Shown one piece after another: positions 14,332 through 53,084 of a DNA stretch of 57,494 bases. The position numbers were made by a program, and so were the translations under genes. The notes under the pieces are model-generated. The model made no database searches and was not told the DNA's origin. It was given only the letters and a program-made list of their open reading frames with translations. The first letter of the stretch is position 1, and each line of letters begins with the position of its first letter. Origin of the DNA: a virus; the IMG/VR virus record IMGVR_UViG_3300006198_000004; one strand, 5' to 3'.

Positions 14332-15606
14332 CTATTTTTTAGGCTCGTCAACACTTGGTAAATCCAATGCCAGAAAATCAAGCACGGCGCGGTTGGCCGC
14401 ATCTATTTTATCCCAGCTCTTGCGAATGTAAATGTCGGTTACGCGCATATTCTCGTCAACATGGTTTAGGGCAGTATGCACCGTGTATTTATCAACCCCA
14501 GCGTCATTGTTGGCTATCGTAGCCCAACTATGCCGGGCCGCGTAAAACTCCAAATCATCAACGCCGATAATCTTACCTATGCGTTTCAATCCTTTGTTGA
14601 GCGCAGCGCAAAATGTATCGGTGGATGAATAGAGCCGATAGAAATTGAACACCCTTTGCCCCGTGGTGTCGCGGTACTTATCCACAAGAGCCTGCGCCTC
14701 CGGCTCAATCCTTATGGAGATTTCCGCTTTGTCGGCACGGCGGTTGCGTGTCTTTTGGCGTTGGTAGGTTATGCGGCCGTCCGCGATGTCGGTTGCGGCG
14801 AATAGGTCGGCGGCGTTCATGCCTACAAGAAAGAAACTCAGAAGAAACACGTCCTTTGCAAAATTGAACCGATTCACTCCGGGTTGTAGTATGGTCGTAT
14901 ATGGAACTTGCGCAAAAGCCCGCATCTGCTCGACTGACAAAGCGCGTTTGCGCGATAGCGAGGGCTTTGGTATCTCTACCTTGTTGAACGGAGAGAAAGG
15001 TATGCGGATAATTCCGGCTTCCTCATCGTTAAATTCTTTCTTAGCCCGGTTATACATTGCCCGGAGTTGCGCAAGATACAGGCTTTGGGCGCGGTCTCCT
15101 TTCTTGCAGTCCTTACGCGGTGGCTGCTTGGCTATCCATGCTATCCAGTCATTGAGGAATTGCACCGTGATTTCCTTAATGCTGACAACCTCACGCTCGG
15201 CAAATCGTTTCAGACTGTTTATTGCCACCTTGTAGGCTTTGGCGGTCCCGCCTCGTCCGTCTTTCTCCAGCTTGGCGATGAAAGCCTCGGTGTAGGCTAC
15301 TATATCCAAGTCAAAGGGTTTTTCTCTATCTTTTGCCAGCAACTCCACGACCTGCTCCACGGTCATATCGTCCAGACCCTCGCCCACGCTGTTGCATATA
15401 GCGCGATAGCGGCGCAATGTGTCCTCTACCATGTCGATGTACTTTTGGTTTTTGAGCTTGAGGGCGCGTGTCAAATCCTCTTTACCTACATACCACGGAG
15501 TAGAGAGATACTTTTTGCGCTGCTTGTGAGTAACGCGGATTTTTATGTTATAGGTGCCGTCGGCTCTCTTTTGATGAGCATACACCTCTGCTTTGAAAGT
15601 TGCCAT
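14332..15606 (-). CDS. int: Tyrosine recombinase (phage integrase, Bacteroidota type)
   Basis: The N-terminal arm-binding-like segment is MATFKAEVYAHQKRADGTYNIKIRVTH. The C-terminal catalytic region is ARHSWATIA...ALNH...TDIYI (Tyr). Confidence 0.9.
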   Translation of the reverse strand: MATFKAEVYAHQKRADGTYNIKIRVTHKQRKKYLSTPWYVGKEDLTRALKLKNQKYIDMVEDTLRRYRAICNSVGEGLDDMTVEQVVELLAKDREKPFDLDIVAYTEAFIAKLEKDGRGGTAKAYKVAINSLKRFAEREVVSIKEITVQFLNDWIAWIAKQPPRKDCKKGDRAQSLYLAQLRAMYNRAKKEFNDEEAGIIRIPFSPFNKVEIPKPSLSRKRALSVEQMRAFAQVPYTTILQPGVNRFNFAKDVFLLSFFLVGMNAADLFAATDIADGRITYQRQKTRNRRADKAEISIRIEPEAQALVDKYRDTTGQRVFNFYRLYSSTDTFCAALNKGLKRIGKIIGVDDLEFYAARHSWATIANNDAGVDKYTVHTALNHVDENMRVTDIYIRKSWDKIDAANRAVLDFLALDLPSVDEPKK

Positions 15607-41620: not shown

Positions 41621-42125
41621 TATCATAAAATTTAGAGCTAAACGCCTTACCAATAGAAAGAGAGGCGCATGGGCTTACGGGCATTTATACCCGATGAACA
41701 CAACAAAAGGACTGCAACTCTGTATCTGCGACCATAAACAGGGCTTTGCCGGTCCCGTGGACGATAATACAAAGGGGCAATTCATTGGGTTATACGACCA
41801 GCATGATAAAGAGATATTTACAGGTGATTATATCGCCATTGATTACAAATATGATGGCTTAGGCTCACATGGATGCGTTGAACCAGACCAAGATTGCTTC
41901 TGCGAGGGAGTAGTTGTTTATATGAGAGAATTTGCCTGCTATGGCTTACATCTTTATAAGGCAGAACAGCCAATTAAAGAATCCTTAAAAGAAACGCCAT
42001 ATCTAACCCTACCGTTAATAGAGTTTGATTTGGTAAGTGATAGCATTGAGATATTAGGAAATATTTACGATAACCCGGAATTACTCACCAATGGAAAAAA
42101 TAGTAAAGCAAAGAGAAATCAGTAG
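41613..42125 (+). CDS. YopX-family protein
   Basis: MDNIIKFRAKR...GLYDQHDKEIFTGDYI matches the YopX pattern (IKFRAW...GKEIYEGDIV). Confidence 0.65.
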   Translation: MDNIIKFRAKRLTNRKRGAWAYGHLYPMNTTKGLQLCICDHKQGFAGPVDDNTKGQFIGLYDQHDKEIFTGDYIAIDYKYDGLGSHGCVEPDQDCFCEGVVVYMREFACYGLHLYKAEQPIKESLKETPYLTLPLIEFDLVSDSIEILGNIYDNPELLTNGKNSKAKRNQ

Positions 42126-42132
42126 CATTAAG

Positions 42133-42396
42133 ATGAGCGTAAATCCGCCACAATGCGTTATAGATGCCGACTATTGCGTTATCGCCAATGGAAAGGTGAT
42201 GCAATATGTAGGGATAGGATGGGTTGAATTAAGAGCCGCAACCCCAAGCGACTACGATACAATCCCCCAGATACTAACACCGCATTGCTCTCAATGCGAA
42301 TACTACGACAATATAGGCGATACCATGTATTGCGCCAAATATCAAAAGCGGATAACGGCCCGCAAGCGTCCGTGTAAACACTATAAAGAAAGATGA
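42133..42396 (+). CDS. Cys-rich small protein
   Basis: It carries CSQC...C...C motifs. The start was taken at the ATG at 42133, after the YopX stop. Confidence 0.4.
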   Translation: MSVNPPQCVIDADYCVIANGKVMQYVGIGWVELRAATPSDYDTIPQILTPHCSQCEYYDNIGDTMYCAKYQKRITARKRPCKHYKER

Positions 42397-45032: not shown

Positions 45033-45620
45033 ATGAAAAAACTATTATTTGGATTTTCCATGCTGCTTGCATTGACCCTTTCGGCTTGCGGCGGCGATGA
45101 TGAGCCGGACACACCGACTGCAAAACTGGACGTGAAAGAGCTTGTAGGCTATGTAGGCAAACAAACATCCTACGTCAAAGAGAATTTCAAGAGTGGCACA
45201 TTTGAAAACGAGGGCGGCTCACTTGGCAAGACCACGCTAAGATATGGCTTGCCAACAAAAGATGCCAATTATTCCGTTACGTTCAAAAGCAACACAAGCG
45301 GAGTAATCACCGACATTGTAGTATATGGCAACTACGGCTCGTCTTACGACAAAGGGATTGAGGCTTACAAGGCCGACATGGACAAAATCAACTCTACCAT
45401 TACACACGTTTCCTATATCGCCAGATACAACAACGGTGTAACAATGGATTTCAAAGACCGTGCGGAGTTCTGGAGCTATGTTGCCGAAAACGGCGTTTCC
45501 AAATTCATTCAAGAAACATGGTGGATTGAAAACACCGCAACAATCAAGTTTGATGTGGAGGCTACATACAACCGTAGTGGCAACTCCGTGGAGATTGACA
45601 TTGAAAAGAAAGAGTGGTGA
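45033..45620 (+). CDS. Lipoprotein (moron-like)
   Basis: It has a signal peptide with a lipobox (MKKLLFGFSMLLALTLSAC-GGDD) and its own -7 box, TAATTTTG, at 44989-44996. Confidence 0.8.
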   Translation: MKKLLFGFSMLLALTLSACGGDDEPDTPTAKLDVKELVGYVGKQTSYVKENFKSGTFENEGGSLGKTTLRYGLPTKDANYSVTFKSNTSGVITDIVVYGNYGSSYDKGIEAYKADMDKINSTITHVSYIARYNNGVTMDFKDRAEFWSYVAENGVSKFIQETWWIENTATIKFDVEATYNRSGNSVEIDIEKKEW

Positions 45621-45672
45621 TGTGTTTATATAACACATATTGCTCACTTTCAGCAAAATAGTTGATTTTTTA

Positions 45673-45703
45673 TTTGTAAATCTCGGTTTTTGAGGCTACC
45701 TTT
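45673..45703 (+). promoter_or_regulatory. Promoter of the structured leader / antirepressor operon
   Basis: It has TTTG (45673-45676), a 19-nt spacer and TACCTTTG (45696-45703). Confidence 0.6.
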
Positions 45704-45708
45704 GCAAT

Positions 45709-45849
45709 GCGTTACATTTCAAAGGGCAAGTGAGTAAAACCGCTTGCAAATCTGTGAGTGGTATTTTTATACCCTTACTTGACATAACTAACGGTATTGT
45801 ACCCCCGTGTGGTGCGTTAATGCGCCCACTGCCCTTTGAGGTGTAACGC
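45709..45849 (+). ncRNA. Candidate structured RNA / 5' leader (closing helix plus internal hairpins)
   Basis: - The 5' arm 45709-45732 pairs with 45827-45849 over about 22 bp.
- Two of these pairs are U-G and work only on the plus-strand transcript.
- Internal hairpins lie at 45754-45778 and 45809-45829.
- The RNA would start at the predicted transcription start. Confidence 0.5.
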
Positions 45850-45904
45850 AACGGGAAAGGCAATGCCGTTTTCTATTGCCTGTTATCTTTCAAAATGCGT
45901 TATA

Positions 45905-46168
45905 ATGAAAGAGAAACAAAGAGGTATGGCTACCTCAAACAGCCAAACGGAGTTTGACCTACTGCTTACTCTCGCCAAAAAGGTTGCTCGGCTTCGTGAT
46001 GAGTTTGAAAAACTCTCAATGAGCAAGGTGTGTGACGGAATATTCTCGGTTAATTTCTTTGAGGCTCAAAACCGCCTTAACGAAATTCTGCTCACTGACC
46101 TTACGGCTCCGATGCACTCGTGCGTGATAGAACAGTTTGTAAACCACGCAAGCGAGGAGGGCGTATGA
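45905..46168 (+). CDS. Hypothetical protein upstream of the antirepressor
   Basis: The ORF follows the leader. The start is at ATG 45905 or 45926. Confidence 0.45.
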   Translation: MKEKQRGMATSNSQTEFDLLLTLAKKVARLRDEFEKLSMSKVCDGIFSVNFFEAQNRLNEILLTDLTAPMHSCVIEQFVNHASEEGV

Positions 46169-47028
46169 GCAAGCAAGTGTTCAGCTACAACGGCTCTCCC
46201 GTCACTTTCCAACTCGGAGAGGCTACAATGGTTAACGCTACCCAAATGGCGAAGCCTTTCGGCAAACGACCTGTGGATTGGTTGCGACTACCTTCAACAA
46301 AAGAGTTTATCAAAACTCTATCCACTGTGAGAAATTCACACAGTGAAAATCTCGTGATAACGGTTAACGGTGGTACGACTGACAACGGAAAAGGCACATG
46401 GTTACACGAAGATGTTGCGCTGGAGTTCGCACGTTGGCTATCGCCCCAGTTCGCTATATGGTGCAACGACCGTATCAAGGAGCTTATGCGCCACGGAATC
46501 ACCGCCACGCCGCAAGCGATAGATGCACTGCTCAACGACCCGGACACCATGATAAGGACGCTCCAAGCATTAAAGGCAGAGCGTGAACGGGCCGACAATG
46601 AGAAACGCCGTGCCGATACTCTGGAGATACAGCGTGATACATTCCACTCGGAAAACCGCCGCTTGCAAAAGCTACACACCGGCTATCTCCGTCAGCTTGA
46701 GGCGCAAGCTCCAAAAGTTGAGTATGCCGATAACGTGCTTTCCAGCGATAGCACCTACACCACTACCCAGATAGCAAAGGAATTGGGAATGTCGGCGCAG
46801 GCACTCAACAAAATACTCCACGGCCTCGGCATACAGTTCCGGCAAAGTGGTCAATGGCTGCTCTATGCCAAGTATCAGGCAAAGGGGTATATGAAAACAC
46901 GGACGCATACCTACAATCGTTCCAATGGACGCACAAGCACCATGCTTGTATCAGTCTGGACCGAGGCGGGGCGAATGTTCCTACACTCACTGCTCAAAAA
47001 GTACGAGTTAATCAAAAGTGGCGTATAA
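46165..47028 (+). CDS. KilA-N / Ant-type antirepressor
   Basis: The N-terminal KilA-N-like region is FSYNGSPVTF...ATQMAKPFGKRPVDWLRL...GTWLHEDVALEFARWLSPQFAIWCNDRI. The C-terminal KilAC/ANT-like region is YTTTQIAKELGMSAQALNKILHGLGIQ. Confidence 0.8.
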   Translation: MSKQVFSYNGSPVTFQLGEATMVNATQMAKPFGKRPVDWLRLPSTKEFIKTLSTVRNSHSENLVITVNGGTTDNGKGTWLHEDVALEFARWLSPQFAIWCNDRIKELMRHGITATPQAIDALLNDPDTMIRTLQALKAERERADNEKRRADTLEIQRDTFHSENRRLQKLHTGYLRQLEAQAPKVEYADNVLSSDSTYTTTQIAKELGMSAQALNKILHGLGIQFRQSGQWLLYAKYQAKGYMKTRTHTYNRSNGRTSTMLVSVWTEAGRMFLHSLLKKYELIKSGV

Positions 47029-47078
47029 ATTGTTCTAATTCCAAAAGTTATTACTAACTTTGCACAACGGTAAAATTT

Positions 47079-47147
47079 AAGCCCCTCCAAGTAAGGCCGT
47101 GGATTGTAGTTCCACGGGTTGCTGCTTGGATGGGCTTATTTCTTTTT
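47079..47147. terminator. Bidirectional terminator between convergent operons
   Basis: The outer stem AAGCCCCTCCAAG/CTTGGATGGGCTT has 12 of 13 pairs, and the inner stem is CCGTGGA/TCCACGG. It is followed by TATTTCTTTTT on the plus strand. Confidence 0.7.
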
Positions 47148-48680
47148 CAGCATTTTCAAGATATTAGGATTGTCCGTAATGCTATGAAGTCTTAACCCTT
47201 GTTCATATATGGCTCTTGTGATTATCCAACAAGTAATCTCGCCTATGATAGTTTCATGTATATAGGCTTTCATTTCGGGGTCATGTATATCATCAACATA
47301 ACCCATATATTGAGATTGTTGATACAGCTTTGGCAACTGCAAAAGAGCCTCGTTTTTGGCTTCAATGTTCGCGAAAGGTTGATTAAGCCACTCCTTGACA
47401 CTTTTCTTTGATATTGTTATAGGGTCATTTATTCCGGGTGCTGATAATGCCTGTGAGCATATAGTGGCATACGCCAGCCGTTGTATCTCCTTTCGCCTCT
47501 TTTTAATTCGTTCCGACAACGGATTCTTTATAACACGGCCTTTCTCTACAAGTTCTTGATTATCCCTTAAAAAGTATGGTAAAGTTCCGGCAGTTGTTGC
47601 TCTATCTATTCTCTCCGCATTATCTTTCGCCCAGACCTTAAACGTTGAGGGCATAGCCGTTACCTCGTTGGCACAATCAACGCCGGCCGGGTCTTTCCCG
47701 TCCAGAATATTATCCAACATTTTATCAAGCTCGGCGGGGCTTGCCAGTACCGGCTCTTGGTAACAACGACAATTAGGGTGCCAGCCACTCCACTTGAATG
47801 TTTTGGGGTATATGCCTTTGAGGTCATCGCAAATATCCGGCTCCGGGTGGTTGTTGCTCAACTTGATTTCAATGCCGATAACGAAAGGCATTTGTTGCCA
47901 ACGCTCATAGTCGGCAGTGCGGTAGGCGATATTTGTTTCAGTTCGCGCCAGCCTTTGAGCGTTCCTATAAGAGCTACGATATACACCACGTCCGGGGTGA
48001 TATTTACGGGGGTCATCATCAACCCATTTGTAGGACCCGCTTTCAGCGTCAAAGATGCGCCTTTTCCACACGCGCCCATATTTGGGTGTGCCGTCCTCGT
48101 TCTCGCCGATTTTGACACGGAAACGCCTATAAAAGCGGTCGGGGTCATTGAGATACTTTTGAATTTGGGTGGCAAGTCTATTAGCCGGAGTTCCCTCGCC
48201 AATAGCCAAATCCAAAGCGTCCTCTAACTCATCCTTGAAAACTCCCGTGTATTTCCATACCTTTTGAGAGAGATTAAGCCCTGCGCCGGTCTTACGCGCA
48301 AAAAACGCTTTCATTGCATCCATGTTGCGTTGAAAGAATCGGGCAAAGTGGTTATCCTCTATTGAGTGTTCGCCAAATATAGCCTTGACAAGTCCATCGT
48401 TATGCTCGTTGGCATTTAGCCACTCTTTTTCTACCCCAGTACGGATTATCTGGTAAACGCGAGAATACATAGAGCGCAATATTGGCGTAACCTCATCGGA
48501 ATAGCCATATTCGGAGAAAGAGAACGGTTTGCCCGCCTCAAGCTCCGTGCCTTTTACCAAGTTAATTATTTCAGTGAGCGCAGACCGATAGACAGCCCCC
48601 ACGTTGGCGGCGTAGCCCTCGGTGCGCTTGAATAACTCGGAATTGAGCTTTTTGTAATCTATGTATTTCCGCTTTGCCAT
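47136..48680 (-). CDS. Head morphogenesis protein (SPP1 gp7 / Mu F family) with C-terminal extension
   Basis: The MuF core is RTETNIAYRTADYERW...NHPEPDICDDLKGIYPKTFKWSGWHPNCRCY, and about 150 further residues follow it. Confidence 0.8.
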   Translation of the reverse strand: MAKRKYIDYKKLNSELFKRTEGYAANVGAVYRSALTEIINLVKGTELEAGKPFSFSEYGYSDEVTPILRSMYSRVYQIIRTGVEKEWLNANEHNDGLVKAIFGEHSIEDNHFARFFQRNMDAMKAFFARKTGAGLNLSQKVWKYTGVFKDELEDALDLAIGEGTPANRLATQIQKYLNDPDRFYRRFRVKIGENEDGTPKYGRVWKRRIFDAESGSYKWVDDDPRKYHPGRGVYRSSYRNAQRLARTETNIAYRTADYERWQQMPFVIGIEIKLSNNHPEPDICDDLKGIYPKTFKWSGWHPNCRCYQEPVLASPAELDKMLDNILDGKDPAGVDCANEVTAMPSTFKVWAKDNAERIDRATTAGTLPYFLRDNQELVEKGRVIKNPLSERIKKRRKEIQRLAYATICSQALSAPGINDPITISKKSVKEWLNQPFANIEAKNEALLQLPKLYQQSQYMGYVDDIHDPEMKAYIHETIIGEITCWIITRAIYEQGLRLHSITDNPNILKMLKKK

Positions 48681-48982
48681 TAGTCGTTATATTCGTTTTC
48701 CAAGTGGGTTATAAACTCATCGAGAACATCGCGTATTCGCTTCATTTTGGCAATAAATTCCTTGTCGCTGTCATAGACGGCCTTGTGTATGTTTGCCGAA
48801 ACGTGGCAGTCAGACACGCGCAAAAAGGTGGATTGATACGGTTGGTTATCGTAGTCAATTACATCACCGTCATAAGCAACGACACTCCCGCTTGAGGGCG
48901 AATCCGGCTCGTTGAGCCAGACACGTTTAATGAATTTCGTATTTCTTGCTTTCTCGCTCATCGCTTTTGGAAATGGTCGCAA
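48680..48982 (-). CDS. Hypothetical protein
   Basis: The ORF is in the operon. Confidence 0.45.
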   Translation of the reverse strand: MRPFPKAMSEKARNTKFIKRVWLNEPDSPSSGSVVAYDGDVIDYDNQPYQSTFLRVSDCHVSANIHKAVYDSDKEFIAKMKRIRDVLDEFITHLENEYND

Positions 48983-49140
48983 TAGTCGTATTTGAGAAAT
49001 TTACACCATTTTTGGAATTGGCACCGGCAAAATATCATATTGCCGTCTGCCCCTTTGTTGTGCCAGTCGGTCGAGTGTTTGCAGTCCTTACAGGTGTAGG
49101 CTGGTCGCTCCGCTTGCTTGGTGGTCGCTTTCTTAGCCAT
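48958..49140 (-). CDS. Cys-rich small protein
   Basis: It has the motifs CKDCKH...CRC...C...C.H. Confidence 0.4.
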   Translation of the reverse strand: MAKKATTKQAERPAYTCKDCKHSTDWHNKGADGNMIFCRCQFQKWCKFLKYDYCDHFQKR

Positions 49141-49142
49141 AG

Positions 49143-49448
49143 TTACACCTCATCCATTTCAATAGTCTGCCCTGCTAATTTGTGGTCGCAATCGGGCAGA
49201 TATTCAATTCTACCCTCTCGGATGAAAGAGTGGCACCGTGTTTCTCTATATGCGCCGGCTATCTTTGTGGTTGATAGGACAGCGACAGACGGCGTGAAAG
49301 TGGGTTTATTCACATCGCCATTAAACCCCCAAATAGGGTGTTCTTGATTGTTCTCTTGCTTGGTATAAACCGCGTGAGTTTTCCCACAACCGGGGCAAAA
49401 GAAAGAATACATCCCGGCGGTTCCGGGTACGAGTTTTATTTTAGCCAT
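49143..49448 (-). CDS. Zinc-ribbon-like hypothetical protein
   Basis: It has the motifs CPGCGKTH...CHSF...CDH. Confidence 0.45.
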   Translation of the reverse strand: MAKIKLVPGTAGMYSFFCPGCGKTHAVYTKQENNQEHPIWGFNGDVNKPTFTPSVAVLSTTKIAGAYRETRCHSFIREGRIEYLPDCDHKLAGQTIEMDEV

Positions 49449-49665
49449 TGGTGGAGTTGAAAAGGTGGTCTATTAGTTCCTGCTTGGTCGCAAAGCAACC
49501 CCTCGCGTCAAAGGTCAGACGTTGGGGATTGTTTCGCGGGGCCGTGTTGATAAGCTCAACAAGTACCTCGGTAGTGCGTCCTCGCATCGGAGAGTTAGGG
49601 GCAGTGAGCGTTATTTCCACACTTGCACTTGGAATTTGTGGGGCTTGTTTTGGCTCATAGTCCAA
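49441..49665 (-). CDS. Hypothetical small protein
   Basis: The ORF is in the operon. Confidence 0.4.
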   Translation of the reverse strand: MDYEPKQAPQIPSASVEITLTAPNSPMRGRTTEVLVELINTAPRNNPQRLTFDARGCFATKQELIDHLFNSTNG

Positions 49666-49702
49666 ACCTCATCGCCCGGATTGAATTTTGTAGTGTAGTC
49701 CA

Positions 49703-51130
49703 TTAGTCCGTGGGTTCAAAAGCGTCCATGCGCCGTAAAGCCATTTGCTGCTCCATATTTTCCGCTTGCTCTTTCTTGATACGTTCCAACTCGGTCTTTA
49801 CGTCCTTGATTAAGTAAGACAGCTCTACATAAGTTTCACGGCTCATCGCGCCATCATTGAATTGTTTGGATATGTCGGCCAGCATATCGCTAACGTCATC
49901 GCCGAAAGGCTCTTGAAATTCATGCCCTAAGTCGAGTGCGTCATGCTCGGCCTTGTGGGTGTAGTCAAGAACATTTCCCATTATGGCACACATAAGGGAG
50001 GCGTGGCGGTTCATATACTCATCGTGCTTTTCCTTATGTTTTTCGGCCTTGATTATCGCCAGCAACATAATTTTGCGAATAGCCTTTGCCGACAGGTTGC
50101 CGAGGCTTTTCATGTTGTCAAAATCAATGTTGGGCGTGAACGACTTGGAAAGAATGTGTTTATCCAGACGTTCAAACTGGTTGCGCTTGCTCTCGCTTGC
50201 CTCGTTCCATGTGAGGTAGGACACATTGCCGCCATTTTTGAGAATAAGCAATTTAGCCTCTTCCTCTTGCTTGGGTAGGGAGTTGAGTATTTCGGCGGTC
50301 GCTACCATTGTGGGGTTGGCGAAACGGTCGATAACATCGGCCTCCACACTCTCGGAGTTCTCAACCTTTTCAATAAGCGGTTGCACATCGGAGTGTTCTG
50401 GCTCCTGCTCAAAGAGCAACACGGGGATTTTCCCTATTGGATTGGGTCGGTGTTCCACTTCCCAGCCAAAAGAGCCTTGCTTACAACGGTAGATAGTATC
50501 GGCCGTGTATATGTCGATATGGTGAACGGTGCGATTTCCCTCCTCGGTGAGATAGTAGCCCCAGCCAAAGGCGCGCAGACGCTTGTATTGGTCTTTTATC
50601 GTGTATATGTCATCACCGCTTTTCTTGCTCAATACATTAAGCAAGAGTTTTGGCTTATTGGTCGCTTCCTCGCGGTAAACGTGATACAGGATAGCCGACA
50701 CACCCTCGGCACCGGCGGCACGTTTAGCCTGCCTCACGCAGCTATCAAAGCGAATTTCACGCATAAGCTCCTTGTAAAAGTTGTATGAGTAATCGGTGTT
50801 TTCTGAAAGTTGCGTCCATTTCACGGGCCGGCCGTAGAGAAATACCAACGCAATTTCGTTGATGAATTTCTGGTAGGGGATAGGAATTTTGTTGCGCTTG
50901 CTCCAACGCAGGAAATTACCCTTGCTATCAAGCACGGCCCTATCCTTGCGCTCCATTACTTTGTGAGTGCTTATCTCGTACTCTTGCAAGTGGCGCATCG
51001 CTTTCTCGGAGTGTGCGGTCATCATTGCAACGGCCCGTGTTACGTCATTAGACGCAAGCAACTCATCAAAGCTCTGTTGGTAGCCGACAGCCGCCTTGAT
51101 GTTGTTGGTGATTGTTTGAATTAAGCTCAT
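49703..51130 (-). CDS. Portal protein (SPP1 gp6-like)
   Basis: It is a 475-aa ORF directly downstream of TerL, with a portal-like N-terminal pattern (HKVMERKDR...IPIPYQKFINEIALVFLYGRPV). Confidence 0.8.
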   Translation of the reverse strand: MSLIQTITNNIKAAVGYQQSFDELLASNDVTRAVAMMTAHSEKAMRHLQEYEISTHKVMERKDRAVLDSKGNFLRWSKRNKIPIPYQKFINEIALVFLYGRPVKWTQLSENTDYSYNFYKELMREIRFDSCVRQAKRAAGAEGVSAILYHVYREEATNKPKLLLNVLSKKSGDDIYTIKDQYKRLRAFGWGYYLTEEGNRTVHHIDIYTADTIYRCKQGSFGWEVEHRPNPIGKIPVLLFEQEPEHSDVQPLIEKVENSESVEADVIDRFANPTMVATAEILNSLPKQEEEAKLLILKNGGNVSYLTWNEASESKRNQFERLDKHILSKSFTPNIDFDNMKSLGNLSAKAIRKIMLLAIIKAEKHKEKHDEYMNRHASLMCAIMGNVLDYTHKAEHDALDLGHEFQEPFGDDVSDMLADISKQFNDGAMSRETYVELSYLIKDVKTELERIKKEQAENMEQQMALRRMDAFEPTD

Positions 51131-51142
51131 AATATCGGGATG

Positions 51143-52570
51143 TTACGTTAAACCTAATATTTGTTCTATGTTTTCGGGTATGTCGATTTCGTTGTAATCA
51201 AACCAGCAACGCATCAAAAGCATATCGCGCCAGTCCGGGGAGCAACCCAAATCAAGTTTTATTTCCTCTTTGGGCTTTAATTGGAGCTTGCCGTCACTAT
51301 CCCCTTTCCACGTTTGCAGTTGTTCAAGCTCTCTTATGATTTCCTCTCGGTCGGCTTGGCTCACAAGTTCCTCATCAATGCCTACCTCATTGGCGTTAAT
51401 GTGTTCAGCCAGCTTGTAGCCGCATTGAGTTTGTAGGTTGCGGTAGTTCTCGCCGGCGAAAGGCGAAGCACCATTGACAAAGCCCTGTATGTCGCAATTA
51501 TCAACCACGCCGCCGCCCACGCCGTCCTCATCCACAATGCACCTATGCTTGGGTATTCTATATTTGCGCTGCTTGGTCGTTATCCATAGCTGAATATCGG
51601 TGAGCTTGCTTTTAGGAAAGCACATCAAATCTATTATATGATAGCCATCCCAAACGGCCAGACGCGCATAGTCGGCACCGAAACGCGCTATATCGCCAGT
51701 GATATAAAACTTGCCGGTGCGGATAGAGAGATTGTTTCCGAATATCGCGCAAATGTCATCGTAAGAGCATAAGGCGTTGGGGTTATCGTCATAATCCCAA
51801 TTACCCTTAAACAGTCGCTCAAACTTGACTTTATCGCTTGTGGTTTTCAATCCCTCAATATAAGCCGGGTCTATGTATGGATTTTCTTGTACCAGACAAG
51901 CAATATAGTAGCGGTACGCCTCAAGACGATTGGCTTTATAAGGCTTGTAGAAAATATCATACATCCAGTTCTTTTTGGGGTTACAAGTGATAAAGAGTTT
52001 GCGCACAATCCCATATTCCAAATTGAGGTGTCGGCCCACACGGGTTTTGAGCGTGTCGTATGCACCAAAATTCACCTCGCCGCCCTCTTCAATCCAGCCC
52101 CCGGTAAATTCCAAAGAGCCAAAGCGTTCATACAGCGGGTCGGAGGGCTTGTATTGCAAATCCAACAAGTCTATTCGGGACCCGTTGTAAAATTCAATAT
52201 AGTTGTCCTGCGCGTTGTACTTGTAAAGTTCCTCGGTGCAACCATACATGGCACATACTTTCTTGAATGTTATGTATGTCGATTGCTTGATACGCTTTAA
52301 TTCCTCACGTCCGATAAACCATTTTGTCCCCGCATAAGCAAGACTCATAAAGAGCAACCACGCGGCACCTGTCCACGATTTTGCACCGCCGGCGGCTCCA
52401 CCATACAACACCTCTACATGGTCGTTGTCGGTGAGTATGGATAATGCCATACCTTGCTTTTCGTGCCTCTTGCCGTCTTTGCAAGTAATAAAGTCGAAAC
52501 ACCCACGTTTGAATAGCTCAACTTTGACCGCAAGCGACAACGGCAATGATATGTCTTTATTCCTTGCCAT
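51143..52570 (-). CDS. terL: Terminase large subunit
   Basis: It has a Walker A motif (YGGAAGGAKSW), an acidic Walker B region (WIEEGGE) and a C-terminal nuclease-like DIARFGADY segment. Confidence 0.85.
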   Translation of the reverse strand: MARNKDISLPLSLAVKVELFKRGCFDFITCKDGKRHEKQGMALSILTDNDHVEVLYGGAAGGAKSWTGAAWLLFMSLAYAGTKWFIGREELKRIKQSTYITFKKVCAMYGCTEELYKYNAQDNYIEFYNGSRIDLLDLQYKPSDPLYERFGSLEFTGGWIEEGGEVNFGAYDTLKTRVGRHLNLEYGIVRKLFITCNPKKNWMYDIFYKPYKANRLEAYRYYIACLVQENPYIDPAYIEGLKTTSDKVKFERLFKGNWDYDDNPNALCSYDDICAIFGNNLSIRTGKFYITGDIARFGADYARLAVWDGYHIIDLMCFPKSKLTDIQLWITTKQRKYRIPKHRCIVDEDGVGGGVVDNCDIQGFVNGASPFAGENYRNLQTQCGYKLAEHINANEVGIDEELVSQADREEIIRELEQLQTWKGDSDGKLQLKPKEEIKLDLGCSPDWRDMLLMRCWFDYNEIDIPENIEQILGLT

Positions 52571-53084
52571 TGTTGCCTGTCTTTATTTTCTCCAAAAGAG
52601 CGTTGTATTGCAATAGTTCCTCGGTAGTCAGCACCGACAAATCAACCGGGTTAACTTTCGCGTTGATTTCGCCCTCTATCGTCTGCGTAGCCTTGCCAAA
52701 TACTCGGTCAAAAAGCATTTCGATTGTTGACGTGCGCCCATAGCGCATATCGGTATTGATAGCGGATATTATGCTCAATACCCACATCGGAGTGTTGGGA
52801 TTGGGCTTGTGGGGGTCGGCGGGGTCTTTCAACAGCGGCTCCAGTTCTGCGGGGGAGCTTTCGTAAATGTGTTGAATTACTTTTAAGATTTCCTCTTTGC
52901 TGCTTTGGGGGTCAACTTTTTTTCCCGTGGTCTGCCGTATGTAATTAAGCACGGAGAATTTGCCACGCCCTTTTCGCTTGGGCTGGTTCTCGGACGTAAA
53001 GCGATTGCCTTTCTTATTTCCTTTTTCAAAGAGTGCCATTCGTTGTGATTCCGTTGATTTATTCTTTCCGTGTTTGTTGAACAC
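52557..53084 (-). CDS. Terminase small subunit (by position)
   Basis: It is basic at the N-terminus and lies directly upstream of TerL, overlapping it. An alternative ATG lies at 53039. Confidence 0.5.
   Translation of the reverse strand: MFNKHGKNKSTESQRMALFEKGNKKGNRFTSENQPKRKGRGKFSVLNYIRQTTGKKVDPQSSKEEILKVIQHIYESSPAELEPLLKDPADPHKPNPNTPMWVLSIISAINTDMRYGRTSTIEMLFDRVFGKATQTIEGEINAKVNPVDLSVLTTEELLQYNALLEKIKTGNNGKE

Follow-up and report, generated by a model that had tools for sequence, protein, structure and literature searches.

In phage P1, the c4 RNA carries an antisense segment with complementary copies upstream and downstream of it (the a1/b1 and a2/b2 sites), and sequence differences in these segments set the heteroimmunity between P1 and P7. 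The mature c4 RNA is a product of RNase P, and it acts through Rho-dependent polarity. It has a role in ant repression (PMC8198154). In Gifsy-1 of Salmonella, the small RNA IsrK has a leaky Rho-independent terminator and is followed by the small open reading frame (ORF) orf45 and the coupled antirepressor gene anrP. One promoter gives rise to both a short and a read-through isoform of IsrK, of which the former pairs with the latter close to where the small ORF starts (PMC4825925). The same paper describes P4 immunity, where two direct copies (seqA and seqC) flank the antisense CI RNA (seqB) in the leader and pairing makes transcription of the replication-gene operon end prematurely (PMC4825925). 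StxS is a short RNA made at a lambdoid late promoter (PMC7547250). Here, we analyzed a structured RNA at the head of an antirepressor operon in IMG/VR virus record IMGVR_UViG_3300006198_000004 (the window, 57,494 nucleotides (nt) in full), together with its homologues.

At this locus an antisense arm is flanked by a 5' copy and by a copy at the start of a small ORF, as in c4, P4 and IsrK. Therefore, we propose a two-state leader or small RNA switch with a short antisense address that gates the antirepressor operon, a reading that we hold with moderate confidence. The RNA family is real, widespread and apparently undescribed. In the literature that was searched, we found neither a description of this RNA nor any phage regulatory RNA described for Bacteroidota. 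Little is understood of how prophage induction is controlled in Bacteroidota of the gut and mouth (Bacteroides, Phocaeicola, Alistipes, Porphyromonas).

The long helix and a proposed terminator helix

The element lies in the intergenic region 45621-45904, between a 195-aa ORF and a small ORF (ORF1) that is followed by the antirepressor gene. All coordinates refer to the window and, unless stated otherwise, to its plus strand. RNAfold pairs the 5' arm a (45708-45728) with the 3' arm a' (45830-45850) over 21 consecutive base pairs, beginning four bases after the -7 box of the predicted promoter. Both arms were delimited from minimum free energy (MFE) structures and covariation. Positions 45705-45900 of the plus strand have an MFE of -74.9 kcal/mol (z = -7.8), and 0 of 200 dinucleotide shuffles folded as well. 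The minus strand folds less well, with -65.9 kcal/mol and z = -5.3. Two U-G pairs, 45717/45841 and 45718/45840, sit in the conserved middle of the helix (CAUUU/AGGUG). The former is kept as U-G in 70/71 homologues and the latter in 54/71. Thus the strand is fixed, and the RNA is read from the plus strand.

Covariation was analyzed in an alignment of 71 distinct homologues (A1). In these sequences, which are related to each other, 96.0% of the cells of a:a' and the core hairpin were in standard pairs. In contrast, column shuffles gave 80.7% and alignments with the partners slid gave 35-53%. Double-change cells numbered 295, compared with 85 in the shuffles. Single a:a' pairs reach four pair types nearly equally, for example AU 21, CG 20, UA 19 and GC 8.

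A first-pass annotation, made from the letters of the window, had proposed a plus-strand structured leader or small RNA with alternative hairpins. It had placed a helix of about 22 bp at 45709-45732 with 45827-45849, two of whose pairs would be U-G on the plus transcript, around inner hairpins at 45754-45778 and 45809-45829. The general proposal is supported by the covariation, by the strand signal of the U-G pairs and by the terminator alternative described below. The helix itself was recovered in the at least 71 distinct homologues, with the 21-bp limits given above in place of the earlier ones. Both U-G pairs are present, and both inner hairpins appear in the MFE structure. The helix and hairpin coordinates had been right to within 1-4 bases. 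What had been overlooked is an upstream segment at 45792-45808, which is the conserved competitor for the segment downstream of a'.

This upstream segment, t, is the 5' strand of a second helix. It consists of a distal part (45792-45800), an internal loop (45801-03) and a proximal part (45804-08). The 3' strand, t' (45851-45868), directly abuts a' and was recognized by covariation and in the fold without the 5' arm. The helix t:t' encloses the core hairpin (45809-45829) and a'. In 22 sequences selected for their uniform indel layout (A2), 99.2% of the cells of t:t' and the core were paired, versus 39-49% with slid partners, and all 9/9 distal pairs showed double changes. Across the whole homologue set, t and t' occur in 34 distinct combinations. 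The energy of a t:t' duplex from the same locus averages -21.4 kcal/mol, compared with -16.8 kcal/mol for non-cognate pairs and -7.9 kcal/mol with t' shuffled. The U-run TTTT, followed by CT, was read from the sequence at 45869-45872, and a T-run follows t' in nearly all homologues. A stable, covarying helix directly before a U-run is the arrangement of an attenuator, and a short RNA would end at 45869-45872.

The core hairpin GUGGUGCGUUAAUGCGCCCAC (GUGGNGCGUUAAUGCGCCCAC in the family anatomy) has the loop UUAAU and is near-invariant among the homologues. With the stems held fixed, scans for single-position variants of the core loop alone found 0, 3, 0, 1 and 0 stretches, against at least 120 with UUAAU; the one scan for a double variant of the loop found 0 stretches. 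In the Porphyromonas gingivalis phages, one compensatory change in the core stem was observed, from GC to CG. A subfamily (L244-L266) carries one extra U in the core hairpin (GUGGUGUCGUUAAUGCGCCCAC) with the loop unchanged. Within it, L246 has a second, nested-looking core copy whose stem GCGG/CCGC is a compensatory change. We also considered the loop (GUUAAU) as a self-complementary kissing-dimer site. This idea was unsupported: no compensating double variants were found, and the rare variants UCAAU and UUAGU are not palindromic.

Two further hairpins lie inside the long helix in the MFE structure, H1 (45730-45747) and H2 (45754-45778), the latter with the U-rich loop AUUUUUAU. A counterpart of H1 (GGCGAG..CTCGCC) was seen in the alignment at the equivalent place in homologues, by inspection rather than by a formal covariation count. 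Three pairs of H2 appear in the RNAalifold consensus, and its loop is nearly invariant. L094 and L062 are minimal variants that lack both hairpins and run from a short 5' arm almost directly into t, core, a' and t'. Therefore, H1 and H2 seem dispensable for the basic switch.

The two helices were compared by refolding. When 45707-45950 was folded with RNAfold, which does not model pseudoknots, the MFE structure contained a:a' together with a small hairpin between t' (45859-45865) and t2 (45875-45881), a downstream copy of part of t. Deletion of the first 20 nt flipped the MFE structure to the t:t' terminator fold before the U-run. The t2:t' hairpin was also returned by a terminator-like scan, and t2 changes together with t' in homologues (GGAAC..GTTCC, GGCAAA..TTTGCC), as judged by eye and uncounted. 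Only 0-1 nt separate a' from t', and t is connected to a' through the folded core hairpin and 2 further nt. Because a linker of a few nucleotides must span two helical turns, the full 21-bp a:a' helix and t:t' should be mutually exclusive. Both helices covary and RNAfold switches between them; their exclusion is a topological inference. By this argument, a:a' would behave as an antiterminator and t:t' as a terminator, and t2 would lock the read-through form. The first-pass annotation had seen a terminator/antiterminator pair in two small downstream hairpins, AACGG/CCGTT and AGGCAAT/ATTGCCT. The second of these is real (45859-65 with 45875-81), and its downstream copy tracks t' in homologues by eye. 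The first exists as a local fold, but in one subclass only. A terminator alternative does exist, but it is formed by t:t' against a:a' and not by the two small hairpins against each other.

The address block and its copy at the ORF1 start

The outer 9 nt of a (45708-45716, TGCGTTACA) are a fast-evolving address block. The block is present at the 5' end in a, as antisense in a', and again as a2 (45896-45904, TGCGTTATA) at the ORF1 start; the outer part of a' (45842-45850, UGUAACGCA) is also complementary to a2. The copy at the start codon, a key feature, had gone unnoticed in the first-pass annotation. In 49/67 modules a2 matched a with at most one mismatch, compared with 3.5% of non-cognate controls, in which blocks were paired with foreign modules. 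The address blocks comprise 26 distinct 9-mers. The copy a2 lies 0-5 nt before an ATG or contains the ATG, the latter in members from P. gingivalis, Butyricimonas and Flavobacterium. Among the positions at which a and a2 mismatch, a' still pairs with a2 at 68. At 34/68 of these, a' is Watson-Crick with a2 but forms a wobble or mismatch with a. Thus the better fit of a' to a2 at 34 positions argues that the a':a2 pairing itself is under selection.

RNAfold places a2 in the loop of a start-site hairpin (45886-45912), whose stem is formed by 45886-45892 with 45906-45912. The ORF1 ATG (45905-45907) is located at the base of this stem, in its 3' strand. The stems vary by subfamily, yet they pair (UUUCAUUUU/AAAAUGAAA, UCUUUCA/UGAAAGA, UGCCA/UGGCA, UCAGU/ACUGA). 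The duplex energy of the a2 flanks was -5.1 kcal/mol, compared with -2.5 kcal/mol when shuffled. A comparable hairpin was found in 40/59 members, with weak stems of -3 to -7 kcal/mol. Partition-function folds of 69 members gave a probability of 0.73 that a2 is unpaired in the full transcript. This value fell to 0.27 when a was blocked, and the a':a2 pairing probability was then 0.60.

The block diverges 3-4.5 times faster than the scaffold (7%/1.6%, 13%/4.7% and 38%/12% for block and scaffold, respectively). Between close relatives it differs by 0 or by at least 2 nt, never by 1. The ORF1 proteins of L044 and L086 differ at 2/85 residues and their blocks differ. Near-identical ORF1 proteins accompany different blocks, and therefore ORF1 does not read the block. 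We read the address block as a determinant of specificity (heteroimmunity).

Several loci (L023, L033, L102, L113, L120, L077) have tandem modules, with two core matches 350-440 bp apart. Each module has its own promoter, RNA and small ORF, and the blocks differ, for example GACTTCC and GCACTAC in L023. Two other loci look like natural chimeras, which recombination or misassembly may have produced. In L264, the 5' block GCGTTAC mismatches its a' and a2 (GCTTACC), and in L009 a and a' have two mismatches. Under the switch model, both would be locked in a terminated or masked state.

The window holds two extra exact 11-nt copies of the address, at 42152 (+) and 31891 (-), where about 0.05 are expected by our own estimate. 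The first, AATGCGTTATA at 42152-62 (+), lies inside the ORF 42091-42396 and is preceded by the core-like GCGTAAATCCGCC (42137-42162). The second, AATGCGTTACA at 31891-901 (-), is on the sense strand of a minus-strand ORF of 1811 aa. Extra targets elsewhere in the phage were rejected as a family feature, as 97 modules gave 2 extra 10-mers against 1.75 expected.

Homologues, promoter and neighbouring genes

By blastn, the element was found in eight P. gingivalis phage records and one faecal phage. P. gingivalis ATCC 49417 has a homologue within its phage019. A megablast search of the phage collection with 46100-52600 of the window gave no match. A scan of IMG/VR with the conserved core GCGTTAATGCGCCNAC returned at least 120 stretches. 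Among the matches listed, 107/123 with enough flank carry the family signature, in 82 distinct 410-nt segments, and the family is present in well over 100 viral contigs. The variant core with one extra U added 23 more loci. In the genome collection, at least 14 true members were identified among the matches listed, while most other matches were chance hits in unrelated phyla. The members come from Alistipes, Butyricimonas, Phocaeicola, Bacteroidaceae, Porphyromonadaceae and two Flavobacterium genomes. As this host range derives from 14 signature-bearing genomes among the matches listed, it is a lower bound.

Rfam 15 at the gathering threshold found only a tRNA in the whole window. A cmscan of 45400-46200 at E <= 10 gave four noise matches, none of them C4, and nine homologous loci gave no match at E <= 0.1. 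Known classes (6S/Bacteroidales-1, Y-RNA-like, ribozymes, C4, HEARO and others) are thus unsupported for the RNA. A covariance model of the element (R1) matched the window only at 45791-45876 (96 bits), with the next match at E >= 0.19, and found no second copy of the RNA there. The suggestion of a riboswitch-like element, also made in the first-pass annotation, found no support: no known aptamer class matched in Rfam, which covers known classes and not an unknown one, and no conserved multi-helix pocket was seen. A retron msr-msd RNA was considered in view of the long terminal inverted repeat at this locus and rejected, as no reverse transcriptase was seen nearby; the homologue ORFs were not scanned against domain libraries.

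The predicted promoter is of the Bacteroidota type, with a -33 element TTTG at 45673-45676 and a -7 element TACCTTTG at 45697-45704 (consensus TAnnTTTG), both read from the sequence. The -33 element agrees with the earlier assignment, and the -7 box lies one base to the right of it. The -7 box was surveyed across the homologues, whereas the -33 element was read in the window only. In nearly all homologues the -7 box stands just 5' of the RNA. Its TTTG is invariant in 71/71 aligned homologues, which were cut at this TTTG motif. Transcription would start at about 45705-45711, a few bases 3' of the -7 box. In many homologous promoters, among them those of L120, L012, L023, L003 and L010, a palindrome lies between the -33 and -7 elements; it reads GGATTCAAAAAGAATCC in L120, and L012 and L023 have GGATTAAAAAATAATCC. 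These spacer palindromes suggest that a DNA-binding repressor may also control the promoter. In the window, a 7-5-7 inverted repeat (ATGTGTT TATAT AACACAT, 45620-45638) overlaps the stop codon of the upstream 195-aa ORF, about 35 nt 5' of the -33 box, and may serve as an operator or as a weak terminator.

Downstream of the RNA, the first-pass annotation had named a small ORF and a KilA-N/Ant antirepressor, and both are in place. ORF1 (45905-46168) encodes 87 aa and had no match in a domain and family search. The antirepressor gene (46165-47028) encodes KilA-N and KilAC/ANT domains, as confirmed by Pfam (PF04383, E = 9e-24; PF03374, E = 1.5e-32) and by PHROG 63 'anti-repressor Ant' (E = 2e-36). 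In the sequence ATGA, the start codon of Ant and the ORF1 stop share bases, an arrangement suggestive of translational coupling. About 8 nt 5' of this overlapping start stands a GGAGG-like motif, in the window (46150-46168) and in most homologues; because of it, unrelated ORF1 proteins end in ..KGG.. or ..EEG... Bacteroidota mostly do not use Shine-Dalgarno sequences, and such an element at a coupled internal start is unusual there. The window is a Bacteroidota prophage, in which an integrase gene (14332-15606) adjoins a tRNA (15715-86) and portal and terminase genes are found at 49.7-52.6 kb.

The operon behind the cassette varies. ORF1 and Ant follow in the window and in L004. In the P. gingivalis phages, small ORFs come first, and genes annotated as ParB-like and primase lie beyond them. 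At other loci, the cassette stands before genes for small proteins whose C-terminal halves are hydrophobic, with large, late-looking ORFs behind them, as judged by eye. Thus the cassette appears to be a portable gate at operon heads. The P. gingivalis phage records annotate the element as the start of a 189-aa 'hypothetical protein' (L001 2962-3531; PP754931.1, XAW31940.1). In L001 this coding sequence begins 5' of the RNA and runs through it, and other P. gingivalis phages have an equivalent. The a2 hairpin suggests that the real start is at the ATG near L001 3200 (MHSTEKD...), and that the first ~80 codons are probably spurious.

A proposed two-state switch, its rivals and its relatives

The two-state switch would work as follows. 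In State A, a:a' would form over 21 bp and block t:t', so that transcription continues. The segment t2 would capture t', a2 would stay unpaired in the start-site hairpin, and ORF1 and the coupled Ant would be translatable. In State T, a would be unavailable, either through pairing in trans to the exposed a' of another copy, through processing or through a masking factor. Then t:t' would form before the U-run and yield a short RNA of ~165 nt, in which a' is single-stranded beside the invariant hairpin. The exposed a' would pair with a2 at the ORF1 start, in cis on a read-through RNA or in trans, and initiation would be blocked. The proposal holds that the RNA may act in trans and that pairing with a2 would repress rather than activate. 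Probably, the RNA controls whether the phage wakes up.

A bolder extension may be entertained tentatively. The block of ~7-9 nt, written three times, would be a programmable immunity code of temperate Bacteroidota phages that needs only RNA and defines orthogonal immunity groups, and the switch would be bistable and self-propagating. The a' of a terminated RNA would capture the a of nascent copies with the same block, so that these terminate too. Induction and superinfection immunity would be decided without a dedicated protein, and the invariant hairpin would be a docking site for a conserved host factor.

Several points weigh against the two-state switch. The start of transcription, its termination at the U-run and any short RNA are predictions from the sequence. 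Thermodynamics, and probably the order of folding, favour a:a', so that the default would be read-through with a' hidden; a free a' could come from processing or from an invading copy. The exclusion of the two helices rests on topology, and a pseudoknot with a partly opened a:a' could form. The a':a2 duplex has just 9-11 bp. In the window it contains one G-U pair, and a2 there differs from a at 1/9 positions. The paired-cell counts for t:t' (A2) come from sequences picked for layout, and the homologues were gathered with the core as bait, so that the invariance of the core stem is partly by construction. Finally, IsrK, which is the closest characterized relative by layout, activates translation (PMC4825925).

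The best surviving rival, which we regard as rather unlikely, is a purely cis-acting attenuator. Here a protein or host factor on the invariant hairpin or the H2 loop would choose between a:a' and t:t', with no RNA acting in trans, and the three-way match of the block would merely keep intramolecular pairing. An N/Q-like factor, RNA polymerase itself as for put RNA, or an RNA-binding repressor would be candidates. This explanation would account for a core loop that is nearly invariant across very different phages, and for a cassette that heads operons as diverse as Ant, ParB-like/primase neighbours and small hydrophobic proteins. The calculated switch also works wholly in cis. However, no candidate factor gene is consistently adjacent. 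Moreover, the block changes 3-4.5 times faster than the scaffold, in multi-nucleotide steps, and it differs between the modules of a tandem; a role for specificity between molecules would explain both observations more readily.

An opposite sign of regulation, as in IsrK, is unlikely. In this case the read-through mRNA would be poorly translated owing to the position of its ATG in the hairpin, and the short RNA or a' would open the stem and activate ORF1 and Ant, so that the RNA promotes induction. IsrK, with its matching layout of small RNA, small ORF and antirepressor, does activate in trans (PMC4825925). The window has its ATG at the foot of the start-site stem, and 40/59 members have a comparable hairpin, but at -3 to -7 kcal/mol the stems are weak. 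Pairing of a' with a2 would either cover the ATG or stop 0-5 nt short of it, and a duplex inside the ribosome footprint usually blocks initiation.

A module resembling type I toxin-antitoxin systems, in which the RNA would be the antitoxin and would cover the start of the gene for a small hydrophobic toxin, is very improbable. It draws on the many loci in which ORF1 encodes 80-91 aa with a hydrophobic C-terminal half (by eye), and on tandem paralogues with distinct blocks, which some type I loci also have. However, ORF1 is soluble or antirepressor-like in the window, L004, L006 and L032, and the RNA is co-oriented and upstream, not antisense or divergent. A DNA-level feature, in which the three block copies are repressor operators or the inverted repeat is a cruciform or origin, would suit the first copy just 3' of the -7 box around the presumed start and the palindromes between -33 and -7 in many homologous promoters, but we reject it as extremely unlikely. 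On the other strand, the conserved U-G pairs would become A-C mismatches. Covariation extends along 21 bp and a second helix, and a' often fits a2 better than a by wobble-aware rules. In addition, the hairpin that displays a2 in its loop has a stem that remains paired from one subfamily to the next, and ORF1 is not the reader of the block.

For lysis-lysogeny control, and for the heteroimmunity of related phages, the two-state switch offers a mechanism that can be tested directly, in a family with textbook-quality covariation for two alternative helices. The cassette would be a compact and apparently portable gate that combines a terminator with translation and has a swappable address. It is a possible genetic tool in Bacteroides.

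Among the known systems, the RNA resembles the c4-icd-ant (immI) arrangement of P1/P7 in being encoded at the head of the operon it would control. In both, the downstream copy sits where translation of a small ORF begins, and antirepressor expression needs the translation of this ORF in P1 and would need it here. In contrast to c4, the RNA comes from a different phylum and lacks a match to the Rfam C4 model. It has an intrinsic terminator that alternates with the long helix, and an invariant hairpin. With IsrK the window cassette shares the small RNA, the small ORF and the coupled antirepressor. It differs in three respects: IsrK activates translation; IsrK is a member of the C4/SeqA structural family, to which this RNA has no match; and neither a long helix between the 5' and 3' ends nor a terminator/antiterminator topology is described for IsrK. 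With P4 it shares two direct copies around one antisense copy in a leader, and in the P. gingivalis phages the cassette lies ~800 bp 5' of the annotated DNA primase gene on the same strand. Between P4 CI and this RNA no sequence or structure similarity was detected; in P4, termination is Rho-dependent and CI is processed, whereas here an intrinsic terminator is built into the RNA. Classical attenuators and the short RNAs of lambdoid late promoters (PR'-tR' 6S RNA, StxS) also have, right behind the promoter, a structured leader with a terminator at its end, a layout in which the short RNA is a by-product or a regulator. Unlike in classical attenuators, the two helices here would exclude each other by topology and not by overlapping strands, and the variable address also matches the downstream start codon. 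The layout of the C4 family (RF01695: P1/P7 c4, P4 CI/SeqA, IsrK) is present, with a, a' and a2 and with ORF1 overlapping Ant, but the RNA is not a member, because the covariance model does not match it. In summary, this family suggests that the logic of c4, CI and IsrK arose independently in another phylum, or diverged there beyond recognition.

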